Origin: a virus
IMG/VR virus record: IMGVR_UViG_3300009702_000008
Coordinates: 1-37,149 of that record
Strand: one strand, 5' to 3'
Length of the DNA: 37,149 nucleotides
In this document: one piece after another, positions 26,404 to 37,149 of the stretch
Layout of the letters: each line of letters opens with the position of its first letter
How positions within the stretch are numbered: position 1 is the stretch's first letter
Position numbers and translations under genes: made by a program
Notes under the pieces: model-generated
Told to the model about the DNA's origin: nothing
The model's input: only the letters and a program-made list of their open reading frames with translations
The model's database searches: none

Positions 26404-27303
26404 TCAATCAAACAACCCGCCTGATTCGGACGTGTACCAGATCACCTCGGTCCGCGGGACTTTGGCCATTGCCGATCCCGTCCCTTGCAGTCCTGATTCT
26501 CTGCCACATACCGCCGCATGACATGCCGTTTTGATTTCTCGCCGTTCATATCGTTGATCGAGACGATTGTAAAGCTCATTCGAGTATCCGCTTATCATCG
26601 CCTTGCCTTTAATCGTCAACAACAAGTCAACAAGCTCTTCGTGATGGTCGTCGTCGCATTCATGGACGTATTCGCCCGATTTTCTAGTCGATGCGACATA
26701 GGGAGGATCGAGGTAGAACACCGTGTCCGGCGAATCCCAATACCTGATAACTTCGAGGGCGTCTCGATTATCGACCTGAACGCGCTTGAATCGCTCGATG
26801 ATCGATGGGAGCAATGAGACGCGGCGGATCCATCTTGCAACGTTCCTTGCCATTCCACGGGATTCAACGAAAGCGCGACTCCAATCGCCTGGTGTTTTAC
26901 AAACATCCATCGAAACGCCCTGATTCTGCACGACGAAAAACGCCCACGCCCGATTCACGTCATCGCCGATCTTCCCATGCATGATATCAAGAGCTTTGGC
27001 AAACTCAGCGCGAGAATAAAGCGTTAGCTCCAACCGGCTGATCAGTGCCTCGGATTTCTCAGCGTTTTGCAATACTCGGCACAAGTTGATCAGCCGATCA
27101 TCGAGGTCGTTATACACTTCAACCGGTCGCGGTTTGATCCAAAACAACATGGACGCCGCACCGCCGTAGGGTTCGCAATAGACGCGACCGTGCGGAAGAT
27201 ATTTGGCGATCGTCCTGCACAGATTGCCTTTGCCGCCGAACCATTGAACTAATCCAGGCAACTTGTTTTTGACATGGCCGTTTGTTTTTTCTTTCGTGTG
27301 CAT
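26404..27303 (-). CDS. DNA adenine methyltransferase, Dam/D12 class
   Basis: ORF 26404..27600 trimmed to ATG 27303. Motifs LVQWFGGKG, EPYGGAAS and DPPY. Confidence 0.85.
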   Translation of the reverse strand: MHTKEKTNGHVKNKLPGLVQWFGGKGNLCRTIAKYLPHGRVYCEPYGGAASMLFWIKPRPVEVYNDLDDRLINLCRVLQNAEKSEALISRLELTLYSRAEFAKALDIMHGKIGDDVNRAWAFFVVQNQGVSMDVCKTPGDWSRAFVESRGMARNVARWIRRVSLLPSIIERFKRVQVDNRDALEVIRYWDSPDTVFYLDPPYVASTRKSGEYVHECDDDHHEELVDLLLTIKGKAMISGYSNELYNRLDQRYERREIKTACHAAVCGRESGLQGTGSAMAKVPRTEVIWYTSESGGLFD

Positions 27304-27344
27304 TTCAGTTTGAACACTTCGGCAATTCCGAATAGTTGCTTCAT

Positions 27345-27414
27345 TGCTCGCCGACGGAATCGAACCGCCGTTCGGGCGCGGAGATGAGGCACGCCTTACT
27401 AATCCATTGCGAGC
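27345..27414 (-). other. tRNA-like element, non-canonical (no D-arm)
   Basis: GCTCGC-AATGGATTAGTAA-GGCGTG-CCTCATCTC-CGCGCC-CGAAC-GGCGG-TTCGATT-CCGTC-G-GCGAGC-A. Perfect T-arm, 6-bp acceptor-like helix, 6-bp stem with a 9-nt loop. Confidence 0.35.
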
Positions 27415-27445
27415 TACTAACGCCGCCCAAAGACGGCATCGCGAT

Positions 27446-27498
27446 CCCCTGCGATAAGCCCTCGACCCCCTGCGATAACGGCATAACCCCTGCGATAA
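27446..27498 (-). repeat. Three direct copies of CCCCTGCGATAA (sense strand TTATCGCAGGGG) at 20-21-bp spacing
   Basis: Copies at 27446-27457, 27467-27478 and 27487-27498, upstream of the tRNA-like element. Confidence 0.85.
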
Positions 27499-27596
27499 GA
27501 AGGGGGCGGCGACCCCACCGGAAGAGGGAGCGAGGCCGCCGCTGGGAGAAACGACAATCGGTCCCCACCGCGTCAATTCGCCCCGGGTAACACTCA

Positions 27597-27812
27597 TCAA
27601 TTCTTATCCTTAGCCTTGCCATCCGGCATCAGCCGATCGTCAATCGTGATCGTCGCAACGCCCTTTTCGTCAGCCGTTTTTGCGGCACGCGAGAAAAACG
27701 TAATCTCCGTACCCCATCGCAGACCGGCTTCTGTTGAATTGGATACGGTCGTCGTACAACCGAGCAGACATCCGCCGATCGCTAACAAGACAAGATTTCC
27801 CAAGAGCCTCAC
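27597..27812 (-). CDS. Small lipoprotein (71-aa precursor)
   Basis: GTG 27812 lies 6 nt after GGAGG. MRLLGNLVLLAIGGCLLGC-TTTV has a signal peptide and a lipobox. Confidence 0.6.
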   Translation of the reverse strand: MRLLGNLVLLAIGGCLLGCTTTVSNSTEAGLRWGTEITFFSRAAKTADEKGVATITIDDRLMPDGKAKDKN

Positions 27813-29835: not shown

Positions 29836-30652
29836 TCCACGCCCTCGCAATCCGCACAAAGTGCTCTTGACCGGTCCAAAGTACCTGCGTTCCCTCGCGT
29901 TTCTCTAATTCCGCCTTCGCCTCGGCCAGCGGGAAATAATGTTTCCCGCCGACCTCGACATCGCCGACCATGATGCGATCAATCAGGCGATCCGGTCCGA
30001 CGATGGAAATCATATCAGTGCGTCCTTGATCGTCGTGTTCTTTGTATGCCACCGACGCATCGAGAAACTTCGCGTTCGGAATCTTGCTGAAGATTTGCAC
30101 AAAAATCTTCGTAAAGTATCGACGATAAGGCAGAGAATCGGTATTCGGCATGACACGCGGTAGATTAAACCAAAACTCAATGTCATCGAAATCGCTCAAC
30201 ATCTTCACCACTTCAAATACATCGCATGAAAAAACTGTATAGTCGCCCTTGCGAAACGGCCCTTCAAGGTCGAGCAGGATTGTGTGCTGGTCATTATCGA
30301 ATAGCGTTTGGATGGCTGGGATCATCGTTTTCTGCCAACCTTCAACATCCCACAAACTATTCGGCGAACCGGACCACTTGCCCGTTTGCTCATCATGTGC
30401 TACGGGCGGCGTCATACCGTATATGACTCTAAAATTAGCATCAAGCGGCAATAAGTTCGATAACCTGCCTGGCAAGAATCCCCAGTCAATATACCATTGC
30501 GGATGCGTTGTCACGATCAGCGAGTTGAACCCAAACAGTTCTGCCCCGACCGTCGCATGGACGATCCCTAGAAGTCCGGGCAACTCAGGCTCGCGGGTCA
30601 CGCGATCGAACGGATCGTTTATCTGAATCCAAGGAATGACATTAGCTGGCAT
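29828..30652 (-). CDS. Hypothetical protein (274 aa)
   Basis: ATG 30652 preceded by GGAGACCGAAA. No domain recognised. Confidence 0.65.
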   Translation of the reverse strand: MPANVIPWIQINDPFDRVTREPELPGLLGIVHATVGAELFGFNSLIVTTHPQWYIDWGFLPGRLSNLLPLDANFRVIYGMTPPVAHDEQTGKWSGSPNSLWDVEGWQKTMIPAIQTLFDNDQHTILLDLEGPFRKGDYTVFSCDVFEVVKMLSDFDDIEFWFNLPRVMPNTDSLPYRRYFTKIFVQIFSKIPNAKFLDASVAYKEHDDQGRTDMISIVGPDRLIDRIMVGDVEVGGKHYFPLAEAKAELEKREGTQVLWTGQEHFVRIARAWNE

Positions 30653-31946: not shown

Positions 31947-32663
31947 TCATTGTGACAAGCGCCTGTCACCTCTGGTTTCAACGATTGTTCCGCTCGCCAT
32001 TCGTGACGCTATACGAGCGTCATACATCTCCTCAATTTTTTCCGGAGCAAGATTGCTTATAAGCACTAACGGTGCGCAATATCCTCCAGACCTGTCGATA
32101 CGCTTATCGAGAGCTTTCGCTAAAGTTTCGTAATGATGGTCGGTGATTTGACGGCGGATTCCAATTTCATCGAGCACCGCGATGTTGCACTCGTACCAGT
32201 CTTTCCAAATGTCTTTTTCCGTTTGGACGATATTTTCATGTTGAGCAGCAATAATCCTGGAGCATAGCTCGTTGATCGTTGTATAAATCGCATCGCCAGC
32301 CCAATCGCAAACGCAAAGGGCGGCGCATGTTTTGCCTGAACCGGTCTCGCCTGACAACAATAAAGGCCATGGACTATCGCCGAGTATGCACGATGAGAAC
32401 ATGCGCTTGATATGGTCATCAACCAAACCATTCGTCCGATGCTTGTCGGGAAATTCCCATCGTGGCGGAGACAGCTTTTCTACGGTTCTGCAACAGGCTA
32501 CAGCACTCGGCGATTCAATAATCGGATTGTCGAGATCGACTATTCGTATGGTCTTAGGCATCAGTTGCCCGATGGATTTTGACGTTTGCGAATCTGGATT
32601 TCTCATAACGGACTCTCGCAGGGTTGTCATCGGATTTTTCAGGTCGTTTCCAGTTTGATTCAT
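31947..32663 (-). CDS. DnaC/IstB-like AAA+ helicase loader
   Basis: Walker A GETGSGKT and Walker B VLDEIG. The start is uncertain: ATG 32663 has a GGGAGA RBS but overlaps the upstream gene by 110 nt. Confidence 0.75.
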   Translation of the reverse strand: MNQTGNDLKNPMTTLRESVMRNPDSQTSKSIGQLMPKTIRIVDLDNPIIESPSAVACCRTVEKLSPPRWEFPDKHRTNGLVDDHIKRMFSSCILGDSPWPLLLSGETGSGKTCAALCVCDWAGDAIYTTINELCSRIIAAQHENIVQTEKDIWKDWYECNIAVLDEIGIRRQITDHHYETLAKALDKRIDRSGGYCAPLVLISNLAPEKIEEMYDARIASRMASGTIVETRGDRRLSQ

Positions 32664-33363
32664 CGTCGTCGTATCTCCCTTGATTGAACCAGGTCGCCGG
32701 ATGCGGGACGTATTGCCAGTCCTCGGTCGCTTTGAGCGGCGAGACCGCCTGGGCGTAGAGTTTCGTCCGCTCGGTGAGGTGGTCCGCGGTAGCCCCCCGT
32801 TTCAGTGCTTGGCTGATTGCTTTGAGGGCGGCCTGCTTGCCGACCTTTTTCGGATATTCGGCGTAGATTGCTTCGAGTTGTGATGTTTTTGTGGTGCTCG
32901 TGGTTTTTTGAGTAAGAGTACTCTTTAGAGTACTCTTTATACTCTTCTCTTCTCTTCTCTTCTCTGGTAACGCTGTTGTAACGCTTTCTGTAACGCTGCT
33001 ATCGTTACATTTGTTACTCTTTGAGCGTTTCTTTTGCACCCGTAACGCCGTTAACGCTCTAGTTTTGGCGGTTTGTCCATTATACCTTTTGAAATTCTTG
33101 AATTTGATACCTTCATCATCAAAAGCAGCCCATCCCGACAATTCCAAAGCCGCAGCGAATCCTTGACAACCCAATAACGCGTCAAGCGTTACATTTGTAA
33201 CGCCGGGAACGTAACCATTTTCGCTGTTATCATCAATCCATTCCATGAGTCGCATGAATTTTGAGGCCACTTCATCGTTCGTGAGGTTCAGTTCTTTAGA
33301 GATAATGAAAATCTCAGGCTTGAAGGTCAGTCCCTTGACCCACTTAATCCAATCCCCGGCCAT
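32554..33363 (-). CDS. Replisome organizer / replication initiator (lambda O / DnaD-like)
   Basis: N-terminal MAGDWIKWVKGL...MRLMEWIDDN. Low-complexity linker. C-terminal YPKKVGKQAALKA...HPATWFNQGRYDD, as in phage replisome organizers. Confidence 0.75.
   Translation of the reverse strand: MAGDWIKWVKGLTFKPEIFIISKELNLTNDEVASKFMRLMEWIDDNSENGYVPGVTNVTLDALLGCQGFAAALELSGWAAFDDEGIKFKNFKRYNGQTAKTRALTALRVQKKRSKSNKCNDSSVTESVTTALPEKRREEKSIKSTLKSTLTQKTTSTTKTSQLEAIYAEYPKKVGKQAALKAISQALKRGATADHLTERTKLYAQAVSPLKATEDWQYVPHPATWFNQGRYDDDESNWKRPEKSDDNPARVRYEKSRFANVKIHRATDA
32916..33216. repeat. Iteron cluster inside the organizer gene (candidate origin)
   Basis: GAGTACTCTTTA x2 (each containing the palindrome AGAGTACTCT), (CTCTT)n at 32942-32965, GTAACGCT at 32967, 32978 and 32990, plus further GTAACG/CGTTAC copies out to 33216. 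Confidence 0.55.
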
Positions 33364-33384: not shown

Positions 33385-33481
33385 ATGGTCGCAACGGCCC
33401 CATAGAACGCGCTATGGTCGCAACGGCATTGCGGAAATCGCAATACGAATGCACGCGCTCTTGGGAAACCGTTGCAACCAT
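33385..33481. repeat. Three copies of a 13-14-nt element in the leader of the organizer gene
   Basis: ATGGTCGCAACGGC at 33385-33398 and 33414-33427. Inverted near-copy CCGTTGCAACCAT at 33469-33481. Small hairpin ATTGCG-gaaat-CGCAAT between them. Confidence 0.75.
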
Positions 33482-33487
33482 GCCCAA

Positions 33488-33515
33488 AACATACACCACG
33501 CAGGCGAGTTGTCAA
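33488..33515 (-). promoter_or_regulatory. Sigma-70-type promoter for the replication operon
   Basis: Minus strand TTGACA (33515-33510), a 16-nt spacer, then TATGTT (33493-33488). Confidence 0.55.
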
Positions 33516-33537
33516 GGATTTCTTTACCGCTAACAAT

Positions 33538-33864
33538 TCACATGGTTCCGGCGATGAAGTCGTGCAGATCGTCAACCGACCTGACCACAACAGCAGTTCC
33601 GCCGGAAGCCTTAACGGACTCCATCCACGCAAGCTGATCCGCAGTAGGTTTGTTGCGTCCTGTTTTGCATTCGACGCTCAGAAACCGCCCGCCGGCCAAC
33701 ACGGCGAAGATGTCGCCCGATCCCCTAGCGCCGAAGCGGACGAACCGCCTGCGTCCTTTATAGGTGCCCCCTACCGCCCCCGTATTGTTTCGCCACGCGA
33801 GGATGCCCCTAACGCGGAGGTAGTCCAAGCATGCCTTAACTAGCTTTGTTTCGCTGCCTGCCAT
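33538..33864 (-). CDS. VRR-NUC domain nuclease
   Basis: 108 aa. ...GSGDIFAVLAGGRFLSVECKTGRNKPTADQLAW... (D...ExK...Q..W). Confidence 0.8.
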   Translation of the reverse strand: MAGSETKLVKACLDYLRVRGILAWRNNTGAVGGTYKGRRRFVRFGARGSGDIFAVLAGGRFLSVECKTGRNKPTADQLAWMESVKASGGTAVVVRSVDDLHDFIAGTM

Positions 33865-33867
33865 TCA

Positions 33868-34265
33868 GTGCCGTGCCTTGCCCGGCCTCGTCACGCCCAT
33901 CCTCGCCTGCGATGCCAATCCATGTCATTCCTCACCTAGCCGGGCCAAGCCAGTCCCCGCCTGTCCGATCCAAGCCACGCCTTGTCGTTCCTCGCCTGCG
34001 ATGCCACGCCTGGCCTCGCCCGTCCGCGCCAGTCCGATCCTCGCCTGCGATGCAGTGCCAACCCTTGTCATTCCTTGCCGATCCGTGCCCTGCCTGCGAT
34101 GCCGAGCCGATCCATGCCTGGCCGAACCTTGCCGTGCCGCGCCAATCCGCGCCCTTCCAATCCACGCCTTTCCCTGCCTGCGATGCCGAGCCAATCCGTG
34201 CCTTGCCACGCCTCGCCTGCGACGCCAAGCCGATCCTCGCCAATCCTCGCATCGCCGCGCCTGCC
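33868..34265. repeat. Array A: degenerate 5-nt-periodic NN(G/T)CC units punctuated by TGCGATGCC
   Basis: CC recurs every 5 nt. 9-mers start at 33908, 33997, 34046, 34095, 34179 and 34218, and all gaps are 4 mod 5. Confidence 0.9.
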
Positions 34266-34721
34266 TTATCCCGCCTTCTTTTTGCGCTTGCGAATAATTA
34301 CCTCTAACGTCGCAAATAACGGAGCCAGCTCGGCCAACCGTTCATATTTCCTTTTGAAAATAAGCAAGTCCTCAATCGCGTCATCGAGCAAACACTGTGT
34401 AAGTTGCGCGTCACTCAACACGCCAGCGATATTGCGGTATCCGCCGCTCTTAATCTTTCGATCTTTGCGCAACGAAACATAGACTTGCGTCGGGGTATCG
34501 ATCGGCGATTCCTTATAGACGACTTTGACGATCAACTTGCGTGCCTGCCACAAGCGATATTCGTGACCGGCCTTTTGGTCGTCCCACTCAAATTGTTCGT
34601 GCAACGCGGTCTTAGGGTTTTCAGCGAAACTGACGACATCCTCGGGTCGCAACAAGCCTTTGTGTTTTTTTTCTATGACCTTCAGTTCGCTTTCGATTGT
34701 TCTTTCCTTCAGTTTGACCAT
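34266..34721 (-). CDS. 151-aa protein bracketed by the two arrays (FEWDD...RLWQARKLI motif, basic C-terminus)
   Basis: ATG 34721 after GAAAGGGAAAACA. Normal coding composition. Function unknown. Confidence 0.7.
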   Translation of the reverse strand: MVKLKERTIESELKVIEKKHKGLLRPEDVVSFAENPKTALHEQFEWDDQKAGHEYRLWQARKLIVKVVYKESPIDTPTQVYVSLRKDRKIKSGGYRNIAGVLSDAQLTQCLLDDAIEDLLIFKRKYERLAELAPLFATLEVIIRKRKKKAG

Positions 34722-34746
34722 TGTTTTCCCTTTCAGTTTGTGTTAG

Positions 34747-35089
34747 GTTTCCGTTCCTGCAGTGCCGTGCCACGCCCCACCCAGCCCAACCTCGCCTGCG
34801 ATGCCAATCCTTGCCTCGCCGCGCCTTTCCAATCCACGCCTTTCCTTGCCTGCGATGCCGTGCCTTGCCCATCCGTAGCGATCCCCGCCCTTCCACGCCT
34901 GCGATGCCATGCCGGTCCCGTCCATTCCCCGCCACGCCATTCCACGCCTCGCCTGCGATGCCGTGCCGGTCCCCGCCCAGCCAGTCCTATCCTTGCCGCT
35001 CCGCGCCTGCGACGCCAAGCCAATCCAGTCCGATCCTCGCCAATCCAAGCCTGTCCGATCCTGCGGTGCATGCGAAGCCATGCGGAACC
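34747..35089. repeat. Array B: paralogue of array A with a near-regular 54-bp higher-order unit
   Basis: 9-mers at 34758 (degenerate), 34797, 34851, 34900, 34954, 35008 and 35062 (degenerate). Gaps are 39, 54, 49, 54, 54, 54. Confidence 0.9.
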
Positions 35090-35135
35090 GAGCACAGCAT
35101 AGCTGCGCTCGGCCCCACAAAAACAAAAACCACGA

Positions 35136-35819
35136 CTAGGACTTTAGACGAAACGTACCCCAACCCATGCCGCAACTCTTCTTACTGTCCGGCCTGCCCT
35201 CGCCAATACCAACCTGCATCCCAACGCGCGAAAGCAAATTAGTAATGTCCTCAAACGTAAACATGTCAGCGTCAAACGTGACCGACACAACAGCCTCCCA
35301 ACCCTCAGGCCACATCGGCCTGGGTCGAATGTCAACAACGCCAGTTTCGTTCCTGACATACATCTCGAAATAATCAGGTTTGCCCTTCGTGATCTTCACC
35401 AGGGGAGTTCCATCATCCGAGTCAAAGCCATTCGCTTCGACAAAGACGGCGAGTTTAGCTCGCGTCATCGTAAACCCTACGATACGGCACGCTGAAATCA
35501 TGGCATTGCGAAACGACGGAGCAGGAATGCCGTGCCAACCTTCACGCGAAACGTGCATCGCATCCTCATAGCACTTTGCAAAATCTTTCGGCTCTCGTTT
35601 CTTTTTTCCCCTTGCTGTAGACCCCGCCTCCTGCACCGCTTTCATCTGTTCGCGAGCCTTTGCCGAGAACTTATTTTGCACATATGGAGCGGTACCGATT
35701 ATGGTAAACTCCGCCGTTCGCAGATTCGGCGGTAAAATCTGCACGTTGCGAACGCCTTTTTGTTTCGCCTTCCCGTTGTTTTTCTTTGCATCTTCCAATT
35801 CTGCAATTCGATTCGTCAT
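35136..35819 (-). CDS. Conserved-looking hypothetical protein of the recombination module (227 aa)
   Basis: ORF trimmed to ATG 35819 (GGGAGA 6 nt upstream). C-terminal ...GMQVGIGEGRPDSKKSCGMGWGTFRL. No family named with confidence. Confidence 0.7.
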   Translation of the reverse strand: MTNRIAELEDAKKNNGKAKQKGVRNVQILPPNLRTAEFTIIGTAPYVQNKFSAKAREQMKAVQEAGSTARGKKKREPKDFAKCYEDAMHVSREGWHGIPAPSFRNAMISACRIVGFTMTRAKLAVFVEANGFDSDDGTPLVKITKGKPDYFEMYVRNETGVVDIRPRPMWPEGWEAVVSVTFDADMFTFEDITNLLSRVGMQVGIGEGRPDSKKSCGMGWGTFRLKS

Positions 35820-35965
35820 CTTGTTCTCCCGTAAAAGAGTTGTTCGCAAGTTACACACTTGCGTGTTCATCACAAAACCAATCTTTCCCGACCTGATTCT
35901 CGGCAGGCTTCATGCACCAACGGTCATCATCGCGCCTGCCGCTGCAACGCTTGCCGCTAAGACGA

Positions 35966-36475: not shown

Positions 36476-37149
36476 TATTGTTTGCCTCCCAAAATGAGTT
36501 TCCAGATTTCATCCGATCCTTGCTCGTATTGAATCGTCTTGTTAACACTCCGAGACTTCGCCCAAAAAATCGGCAACTCCTGCGTATAAATCGTTCGTGT
36601 TCCGGCACCGACTGCCTTGCCGTCTTTGACCGCCTTGTCGTAATTGATAAACAGCATGTGGTCGCACCAATTCTTTACGGCGTCTCTGATTCTTCCGGTT
36701 TTCGGTGGCTGATAGAGATCGGGCTCATATCTAAGGTAATCGTCACCTTCAGGATTCGGAGCCATCGAAGTCGTCGAATGACAAACCAACACGACGTTTC
36801 GGCCAGCCCTTTTGTGACGATCCAAGTCAGCCAACAAGAGCCGAAACGTCTCCAAGACGAATTGATAACCCTTCCCATATCCATAACCTTCGATGGACGA
36901 AACACGATGTCCCTTCTCATGCGGAACTGTTTCGAGAGTATAGTTCTCCGCAAGCTGTTGCGCCTGCGTTGCCGTGTCAACAACAACGGTTTTGCAATCT
37001 TTCCAGATGCCTTCGTCCCGTAGTGCATCGCGCATATCTACAAACGTCTCTACTCCGTTGACCTGGCGTATATTCGCCTTCGATTCATCTCTATCGAGAT
37101 TCAAAAAGATCGGCGACGGCGCGAGCGATGCAAGCGAAGTCTTACCGAC
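36475..37149 (-). CDS. Sak4-like RecA-fold AAA ATPase, C-terminal segment (N-terminus at 1-261 across the junction)
   Basis: The frame runs off the window end at ...VGKTSLASLAPSPIFLNLDRDES.... Walker-B-like TVVVDTA. The full gene is about 270 aa. Confidence 0.85.
   Translation of the reverse strand, partial: VGKTSLASLAPSPIFLNLDRDESKANIRQVNGVETFVDMRDALRDEGIWKDCKTVVVDTATQAQQLAENYTLETVPHEKGHRVSSIEGYGYGKGYQFVLETFRLLLADLDRHKRAGRNVVLVCHSTTSMAPNPEGDDYLRYEPDLYQPPKTGRIRDAVKNWCDHMLFINYDKAVKDGKAVGAGTRTIYTQELPIFWAKSRSVNKTIQYEQGSDEIWKLILGGKQ
37027..37149. repeat. Terminal overlap, copy 2 (identical to 1-123)
   Basis: See copy 1. Confidence 0.95.

Follow-up and report, generated by a model that had tools for sequence, protein, structure and literature searches.

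Pentamer arrays beside a RAMP-fold gene as probable guide-RNA arrays of a phage VIPR system

The virus record IMGVR_UViG_3300009702_000008 of IMG/VR was analyzed from position 1 to position 37,149, and this whole stretch of 37,149 nucleotides (nt) is referred to here as the window. There are two arrays of 5-nt units in the window, array A (33868..34265, minus strand) and array B (34748..35065, minus strand). Two genes accompany them on the same strand. The first, putative vipr (35136..35819, minus strand), encodes a 227-amino acid (aa) protein with a predicted RAMP fold and lies just upstream of array B. It was identified through its homologs, an AlphaFold2 (AF2) model, Foldseek, and a sequence profile. 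The second, a vap-like partner gene (34266..34721, minus strand), was identified through homologs and an AF2 model; it encodes an all-helical protein of 151 aa and lies between arrays A and B. Arrays A and B are very likely, at a probability of roughly 90%, the guide-RNA (vrRNA) arrays of a phage Viral Interference Programmable Repeat (VIPR) system, read on the minus strand. This is an already-known kind of feature, described in 2026, with differences that are specific to this clade. The basis for the assignment is the anatomy of the arrays, the fold of the adjacent protein, the association of array, vipr, and partner gene, the sense orientation, the register rule, and the hypervariability of two bases (NN) in each unit.

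The period of array A can be read directly from the plus strand, where CC occurs every 5 nt from 33868 to 34265. Pairs of CC spaced at +5 number 56 in array A, compared to 14.7 +/- 3.3 (maximum 24) in 1000 dinucleotide-preserving shuffles. In array B there are 53, compared to 15.5 +/- 3.5 in shuffles of the same kind, and the period-5 signal of the arrays is 11-12 standard deviations over the shuffles. An initial annotation had described array A as being punctuated by a 9-mer that shifts the phase of the CC dinucleotides by one, and a recount bore this out. The motif TGCGAYGC starts at 33908, 33997, 34046, 34095, 34179, and 34218, with the copy at 34046 being the variant TGCGATGCAGTGCC, as had been stated. 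Successive starts are 89, 49, 49, 84, and 39 nt apart, each of these gaps being 4 mod 5. Taken as position mod 5, the CC phase goes through 1, 0, 4, 3, 2, 1, 0, with a drop of one at each TGCGAYGC. Array B follows the same rule, with motifs at 34797, 34851, 34900, 34954, and 35008 and gaps of 54, 49, 54, and 54. The whole window contains 17 matches to TGCGAYGC, where 6.4 +/- 2.9 are expected, and 11 of the 17 lie within arrays A and B. The limits that had been given for array A were also found to be right. It begins at 33868, 3 nt off the ATG (33864-33862) of a VRR-NUC gene, and it ends at 34265, next to the stop codon of the 151-aa open reading frame (ORF) at 34266-34268.

The structure proposed in the initial annotation is partly supported and largely right, but the meaningful strand is the minus strand, whose repeated unit, in gene orientation, is GG(C/A)NN. 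That annotation proposed a structure and not a function, and it did not connect the arrays, as guide RNAs, with the RAMP-fold protein next to them. All flanking genes have the minus strand as their sense strand, and on it the two arrays resolve into 13 runs of 7-17 units each (seven runs in A, six in B). Between junctions, each of the 13 runs is a whole number of 5-nt units long, and the junctions are intact. The phase-shifting element is a 4-nt junction, CGCA, which stands between a conserved last unit GGCAT and a first unit GGCRN (GGCAT, CGCA, GGCRN). Runs can also end in GGCGT, GGCAC, or TGCAT, and the next run opens with GGCRN. CGCA is the usual tetramer, TGCA is used once, and GGCA is found at the very start of array A. 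Every junction of both arrays moves the phase by -1. A 4-nt junction amounts to a 1-nt overlap of successive 5-nt registers, and the 4 mod 5 rule follows from this.

Array B was delimited by the minus-strand parse together with the periodicity and lies between vipr and the partner gene. It contains runs B1 to B6 and a 2-unit stub. Its junction tetramers, located by the minus-strand parse and given in plus-strand letters, are TGCG at 35062, 35008, 34954, 34900, 34851, and 34797 and TGCA at 34758. The putative guides, all on the minus strand, are B1 (35012..35061), B2 (34958..35007), B3 (34904..34953), and B5 (34801..34850) with 10 units each, B4 (34855..34899) with nine units, one of them degenerate (GCTAC), and B6 (34762..34796) with seven. 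Array A opens with its GGCA junction right after the stop codon of the partner gene. Its guides, again on the minus strand, are A1 (34222..34261; eight units, one degenerate, TGCGA), A2 (34183..34217; seven units), A3 (34099..34178; 16 units), A4 (34050..34094; nine units, the last of which, TGCAT, is the variant 9-mer), A5 (34001..34045; nine units), A6 (33912..33996; 17 units), and A7 (33868..33907; eight units, one degenerate, GACGA). The first six units of B5 are paralogous to those of A3. The two guides share these units with two NN differences (AG/AA, AA, GT, TT, AG/AA, GC) and are divergent after them, a pattern that suggests a duplicated guide retargeted to variant alleles.

In the window, C makes up 54% of the bases at unit position 3, A 36%, G 5%, and T 4%, and strict GGY accounts for about 58% of the units. 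Positions 4 and 5 are near-uniform in base composition, and GG is retained in the great majority of units. The degenerate units found in the runs include GACAA, GACGA, GCTAC, TGCGA, and TGCAT. A second punctuation motif had also been proposed for array A, the 10-mer WTGTCRTTCC. It is present at 33922 and 33982 (both in A6) and at 34065 (in A4, as GGAAT GACAA). However, the phase does not change at it, and its distance to the junctions is not constant in the window, so that the role of punctuation does not hold for it. Elsewhere in the window there is a single unrelated copy on the minus strand (30633-30642). By chance, 0.45 copies of the 10-mer are expected. Read on the minus strand, the 10-mer is simply two in-phase units, GGAAY and GACAW, with GA in place of GG in the second. 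Among degenerate units, the GAC type is the most frequent in the family as a whole, and about one third of such units stand directly before a junction. The GGAAY GACAW motif is a recurrent tolerated variant, not punctuation.

It does not appear that the arrays act through RNA structure. The fold of the minus-strand array RNA has a z-score of +0.72 and is no better than that of shuffled sequences, and the structured-RNA reading was rejected on this result. Rfam gave nothing relevant at the gathering threshold in the whole window or at E<=1 in 33500-35300, and no tRNA genes were found in a tRNA gene search. No sigma-70-like promoter was found within or just upstream of the arrays, which is consistent with read-through from the operon.

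The composition of the plus strand (C 45%, G 21-23%) is strongly skewed between strands. Regularly spaced YC dinucleotides resemble rut (Rho utilization) sites, the primary binding sites of Rho. The C-rich strand, with its own regular YC dinucleotides, could in that case be a tract at which antisense transcription into the early operon is ended. A tract of this kind would still have to accommodate the G content given above, and it leaves the 5-nt register, the 4-nt junctions, the hypervariable NN, and the obligate link to a RAMP protein unexplained. As the explanation of the arrays it has next to no probability, and an effect on Rho could be a by-product alongside their use as VIPR guides.

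The 227-aa protein has 7359 homologs, none of which has a Pfam domain, and one of the homologs bears the UniRef name 'CRISPR-associated protein'. It is 60-76% identical to hundreds of these homologs. An in-frame GTG upstream, at 35873, is a possible alternative start that would give 245 aa. The C-terminal G-loop reads GIGEGRPDS, and G-x-G-E-G-R-P-D-S is invariant in the family alignment. The AF2 model has a predicted local distance difference test score (pLDDT) of 84.5. When the model was compared to the PDB with Foldseek, 57 matches were obtained at E<=1e-3, and each of the best 50 of the 57 is a CRISPR effector complex (Csm, Cmr, type VII, or gRAMP). Profile A5, which was broadened to include divergent members, has a single significant match among PDB sequences, 36pp_D, 'SUSP1 Vipr protein' (E = 3.1e-5), and the narrow profile gives a weaker match to it (E = 0.048). 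The aligned segment begins at the thumb arginine and extends as far as the G-loop, with SYRP...GVGDWRP set against RPRP...GVGEGRP. Judging from the model and the profile, the protein is probably a minimal RAMP with an RRM core, a glycine-rich loop, and a thumb; it is predicted to be Cas7-like and a homolog of Vipr. No Cas genes were found through PADLOC or NCBIfam, and the single RAMP gene is the sole Cas-like gene.

The 151-aa partner protein has 59 homologs of about 150 aa. Its AF2 model (pLDDT 90.7) is all-helical and has no fold match in the PDB, and a search of BFVD returned just two uncharacterized phage proteins. It was considered as a possible RAMP and rejected because of the all-helical model and the lack of a PDB match; it is taken to be an accessory protein. 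A homolog of the partner adjoins a vipr homolog in nearly all of the related loci as well as in Mycobacterium phage Donkeykong (gp50).

VIPR is a CRISPR-like, phage-encoded system for RNA-guided DNA binding (bioRxiv 10.64898/2026.04.26.720920, April-June 2026). It consists of a minimal RAMP (Vipr), vrRNA, and an accessory gene, vap. Types I-VII and accessory genes vap1-6 are distinguished. Each vrRNA is built from 9-16 YNNGG repeats with a conserved GGY and a hypervariable NN, and vipr genes are flanked by long intergenic vrRNA arrays. Double-stranded DNA is targeted through a '1-nt skip' (xNN) code, and most targets lie at codon positions 1-2 in genes of competing phages. Variant repeat consensuses (NNNGG and others) and arrays interspersed with hammerheads exist, and internal degeneracy of vrRNAs is normal. 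VIPR has been proposed to be an ancestor-like relative of the CRISPR RAMPs, with a new, programmable gapped code for double-stranded DNA. In the structure from Escherichia phage SUSP1 (type II, PDB 36pp), one Vipr protomer covers each pentamer. G1, G2, and Y3 are sequestered by the RRM sheet, the thumb, and the G-loop (D177, W178, and R179), NN is presented, and the pocket excludes purines at unit position 3 (10.64898/2026.04.26.720927).

The window has much in common with this system. There is a phage-encoded minimal RAMP with a G-loop beside a small accessory gene, and the two genes are flanked by long 'intergenic' arrays of sense pentamers with invariant GG and hypervariable NN. The run lengths are also alike, with 9-16 units published and 7-17 in the window. 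The accessory gene of the window differs from that of SUSP1 in being sandwiched between two arrays. The G-loop differs as well, being GEGRP in the window and GDWRP in SUSP1, so that the Trp that stacks on G2 is replaced. By analogy with the SUSP1 work, the locus would be transcribed with its operon, and one Vipr protomer would bind each pentamer, with GG(C/A) sequestered and NN presented. Pairing of NN with the bases of double-stranded DNA would then be gapped (xNN register) and would typically fall at codon positions 1-2 of a gene of a competing phage or mobile element, and guide binding would repress transcription of the targeted gene. The 4-nt junction (CGCA here, GGCA in most relatives) would bring the next GG one nt early and break the 5-nt register. 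It is proposed here that one guide, or filament, stops at this break and another begins, and that the break may take the place of the structured 3' tail with which type II vrRNAs are capped.

Other known systems are less similar. The Cas7, Csm3, and Cmr4 filaments that form on crRNA in Class 1 CRISPR-Cas share the RAMP fold, the use of one protomer per fixed number of guide nucleotides, and base flipping induced by the thumb. The window, however, has no repeat-spacer array, cas1/cas2, Cas5, Cas6, or large subunit. In those filaments 6 nt are covered with one base flipped, whereas VIPR covers 5 nt with three sequestered and carries its guide code within the repeat itself. Tandem and direct-repeat analysis of the window for a CRISPR array (repeats of about 25-40 nt) gave only 5-nt-based periodicities. 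The trp RNA-binding attenuation protein (TRAP) of Bacillus is also an oligomer that reads a short motif about every 5 nt on single-stranded RNA (GAG/UAG, with 2-3 nt spacing), but it is a closed 11-mer ring of unrelated fold that regulates its own mRNA leader and has no guide function. A TRAP-like ring binder, a CsrA sponge, a Rho rut tract, G-quadruplex (G4) or R-loop origins, Chi-like decoys, and decoys of protospacer-adjacent motifs had all been considered as candidates and were dropped after the VIPR literature and the confirmation of the RAMP fold.

The related loci can indicate which of these features are general. A scan of viral contigs in IMG/VR with the Vipr alignment gave 492 relatives. 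The best 80 of the 492 were examined, and together with loci found earlier these make up 72 non-redundant loci, some of which are referred to below by L numbers. The triad of vipr, partner, and array recurs in dozens of phages. Arrays of GG pentamers in the sense of vipr are present in 63 of the 72 loci, and antisense arrays in none of the 72. Outside of the 63, other units are found, GTYNN in L005 and GACNN in L085. In these two arrays (L005, 2380-2810, with GGCA 4-nt junctions; L085, 3646-3789) the period of 5 and the -1 junction are retained and GG is altered. The initial annotation had suggested that relatives be checked for a conserved register with varying unit counts, and this is what was found. 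A total of 120 arrays have 365 phase changes, 317 of which (87%) are 4 mod 5, that is -1, and runs have 9-20 units with a mode of 10-12. The dominant junction is GGCA followed by GGCNN, and the variant seen in the window, GGCATCGCAGGCG, is also present in L003 and others.

The variation falls on the NN positions. Between L021 and L024, whose flanks are about 91% identical, array mismatches at unit positions 1 to 5 are 0, 12, 8, 54, and 77%; the hypervariability of NN was measured in these two relatives. A at position 3 occurs in other loci with the same G-loop as the window, L027 (60%) and L071 (36%). No covariation of the G-loop with position 3 was found, as loci with GIGEGRP span 0-60% A. 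Two side observations were made in these loci. GACAY stands directly before a GGCA junction about three times more often than the junction density predicts (for example in L055, L039, L025, and L001, not in the window), which hints at a preferred penultimate unit at the 3' ends of guides in many relatives. A 61-aa CsrA-domain protein (PF02599) is encoded in L005 (5685-5870), a few genes downstream of the VIPR locus.

A blastn search of GenBank phage DNA returned only compositional matches, to the arrays of Cluster F mycobacteriophages, and these became a lead to relatives. The Cluster F phages (Cheoctovirus: Donkeykong, Quico, Saal, Gorge, DRBy19, and Florinda) have sense (GGCNN)n arrays with GGCA 4-nt junctions. 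After the array come a homolog of Vipr, gp49 (hhalign E = 1.4e-22), and one of the 151-aa partner, gp50 (E = 1.3e-19). They have one array only, upstream of vipr, whereas the window has two. Their position 3 is about 100% C, compared to C or A in the window, and their G-loop is GVGDWRP, as in SUSP1, compared to GIGEGRP. They also differ in location, since the locus is in the Ant/Cro/Xis immunity or early region and that of the window is in a replication module. It appears that Cluster F mycobacteriophages carry a VIPR locus in the Ant/Cro/Xis region and that the array is mis-called as a gene in some records.

One such record is that of Donkeykong (NC_051648, L001), where the coding sequence 'gp48 hypothetical protein' (1471-1857) is the (GGCNN)n array itself. 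In Quico (L002) the homologous array (1485-1735) is left without annotation. An alternative reading, in line with the gp48 annotation, is that the arrays are translated into Gly/Ala/Arg-rich pentapeptide-repeat proteins, and ORFs of 94-166 aa do overlap the array of the window in five of the six frames. Such open frames are automatic from the NNNCC composition, however, and no minus-strand ORF spans the array, which is covered by fragments of 94, 106, and 41 aa. Each 4-nt junction puts the next run in another frame, and the junction gaps are not multiples of 3. Variation falls on two of every five nt whatever the codon phase, and the Quico region carries no annotated gene. The probability that the arrays are translated repeats is judged to be negligible.

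The arrays of the window are within a replication and recombination module that includes a Sak4-like gene, a replication initiator, a DnaC-like loader, and VRR-NUC. The genes for the terminase large subunit, portal, major head/capsid, and tape measure and the replication genes were checked and are all on the minus strand, as are nearly all long ORFs. The VRR-NUC gene (33538..33864, minus strand) is adjacent to array A and was identified through PHROG endonuclease and Holliday junction resolvase matches. It had been noted that its ribosome-binding region lies inside the array, and this is correct by position only; VRR-NUC is absent beside every other related locus, so that the gene is not part of the system. 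VRR-NUC homologs were found in 0 of the 71 other related loci. VRR-NUC was considered as a nuclease vap and rejected for this reason, and it is regarded as a mere neighbor because of the same absence.

The location within this module raises the question of whether the arrays act as DNA, as a replication origin, an R-loop or G-quadruplex region, or iterons, with the G-rich non-template strand priming replication. GG every 5 nt could in principle give a two-tetrad G4, and the strand skew of the composition fits such a role. However, the arrays track the pair of Vipr and partner and not the replication genes, with VRR-NUC missing from all other loci. The mycobacteriophage array sits in the Ant/Cro/Xis early region, and the orientation is sense to vipr in 63 of 63 loci. 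A fixed GG with hypervariable NN suits a guide, not an iteron. A more conventional candidate for an origin is a repeat cluster in the initiator gene, and a DNA-level role of the arrays is considered very improbable. That cluster (32915-32998) consists of three adjoining short tandem repeats (a 12-mer in 2.1 copies, CTCTT in 4.8, and an 11-mer in 2.8) inside the replication-initiator ORF (32554-33363, minus strand), and these may be origin iterons.

Other repeats were found in the window. Two features were noted around the gap between VRR-NUC and the replication-initiator gene, at 33385-33425 and 33488-33515, respectively. These are the direct repeat ATGGTCGCAACGGC, which occurs twice, and a minus-strand promoter that is a good match to the sigma-70 type (TTGACA-16-TATGTT) and is directed into the replication-initiator gene. 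A 20-nt tandem repeat, CCCCTGCGATAAGCCATCAA, is present in 2.7 copies at 27446-27499, close to the 5' end of an ORF for a DNA methyltransferase (26404-27600, minus strand).

The targets of the guides were searched with the 1-nt skip (xNN) rule, and other skip rules served as controls. No guide of the window has a match to the window itself above the control skip rules. Exact-pattern scans were made of viral contigs for B2, B3, A3, A5, and A6, of genome contigs for B3, and of metagenome contigs for B1. In viral contigs there were 0 matches to the exact patterns of B2 (xNN target GCnGCnAAnTAnCTnTGnGGnCCnACn) and A3, and 0 for B3. B3 has one match in genome contigs, to a histidine kinase of Mucilaginibacter, where about one is expected by chance. 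The eight matches of B1 in metagenomes are AT-rich and have no coherence. The halves of A6 have one and four matches, with no extension past the seed that is better than chance, and A5 has seven, one in a plausible protein and none extending. These candidates were rejected.

A mismatch-tolerant local search was also made with 203 guides of the family against 0.5 Mb of loci, and the 1-nt skip exceeded the control skips in high matches by a small margin only. One match is of interest. Under the 1-nt skip rule, an 11-unit guide of L023 (2153-2207) has 20 of its 22 NN bases matched in a DAM-like/GNAT gene of the related phage L033 (5058-5090). There is no mismatch in the first nine units, and the NN are all at codon positions 1-2, as in the published targets, in what is the sole in-clade candidate target. 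Unit-order permutations reached 20 in 0 of 1500 trials. The ortholog in L023 itself matches at 16 of 22 and differs at exactly two codons (TCC to AGC, serine, and GCC to TGC), which looks like discrimination of self from competitor.

Several points weigh against the assignment of the arrays to VIPR. The scans for natural targets of B1, B2, B3, A3, A5, and A6 were empty or at chance level. The match of L023 to L033 is suggestive support for the targeting rule within the clade and is not decisive after correction for 203 guides. The TM-scores of the Foldseek matches are modest (0.35-0.47), and the similarity to the SUSP1 Vipr sequence is limited to about 47 C-terminal residues and needs a profile to be seen. 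Compared to CHARACTERISED systems, the arrays of the window are tail-less, without the pseudoknotted 3' tail of about 40 nt that type II has, and their runs are split by a 4-nt junction. Position 3 is C or A, with A at 36%, whereas SUSP1 is sterically limited to pyrimidines.

Some of these points can be accommodated. The 3' tail is a trait of type II and not of the whole family, since the VIPR paper mentions tail-less 'staggered' arrays with 1-nt overlapping vrRNAs, which it did not characterize by experiment (legend of figure S18, 10.64898/2026.04.26.720920). The -1 register of the window would be this 'staggered' architecture as far as the legend describes it, which is a further reservation. 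A at position 3 is taken as a variant and not as an exclusion from VIPR, because the VIPR paper accepts 'a related consensus' and NNNGG-type repeats.

The A at position 3, the degenerate units (GACAA, GCTAC, TGCGA, and TGCAT), and the target scans without a convincing match could also indicate a decayed or orphan VIPR locus, in which the pentamers are relics that no longer serve as guides. A relic would not be expected to retain intact and highly conserved vipr and partner ORFs (60-76% identity to hundreds of homologs) with an invariant G-loop. It would also have to account for 13 of 13 runs that are exact multiples of 5 nt with intact junctions and for GG in the great majority of units. Internal degeneracy is normal for vrRNAs according to the VIPR paper, and L027 and L071 likewise use A at position 3. 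Decay of the locus is thus improbable, although somewhat less so than the other alternatives. The comparative data disfavor each of the four, namely the relic, the DNA-level origin, the translated repeat, and the Rho tract.

Within VIPR, it is conceivable, though doubtful, that this clade is a mechanistically distinct subtype in which A at position 3 is tolerated or read and bare 4-nt junctions set the boundaries of guides. Position 3 would then be a third, partly informative base or a regulatory mark, and this would fit the change of Trp to Gly in the G-loop. The G-loop alone does not account for A at position 3, as the same loop sequence is found with 0-60% A across loci. The junction would interrupt growth of the filament, and no dedicated processing nuclease or ribozyme would be needed. 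If such a subtype exists, the downstream gene (VRR-NUC, which starts 3 nt past the last unit) would be expressed only from transcripts that are not packaged by Vipr filaments.

The arrays also carry a lesson for annotation, as C-rich or G-rich pentamer tracts of this kind should not be called ORFs. The survey of 72 phage loci quantifies the register rule (87% at -1), the strict sense orientation, and the conserved partner of about 150 aa, and it flags a position 3 in this clade that is tolerant of purines. Going by the figure S18 legend, the window would provide a clean natural example of tail-less 'staggered' arrays, the least-characterized VIPR architecture, with 13 putative guides that have exact boundaries. 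The Cluster F mycobacteriophages, which are tractable in the laboratory, appear to carry the same system.

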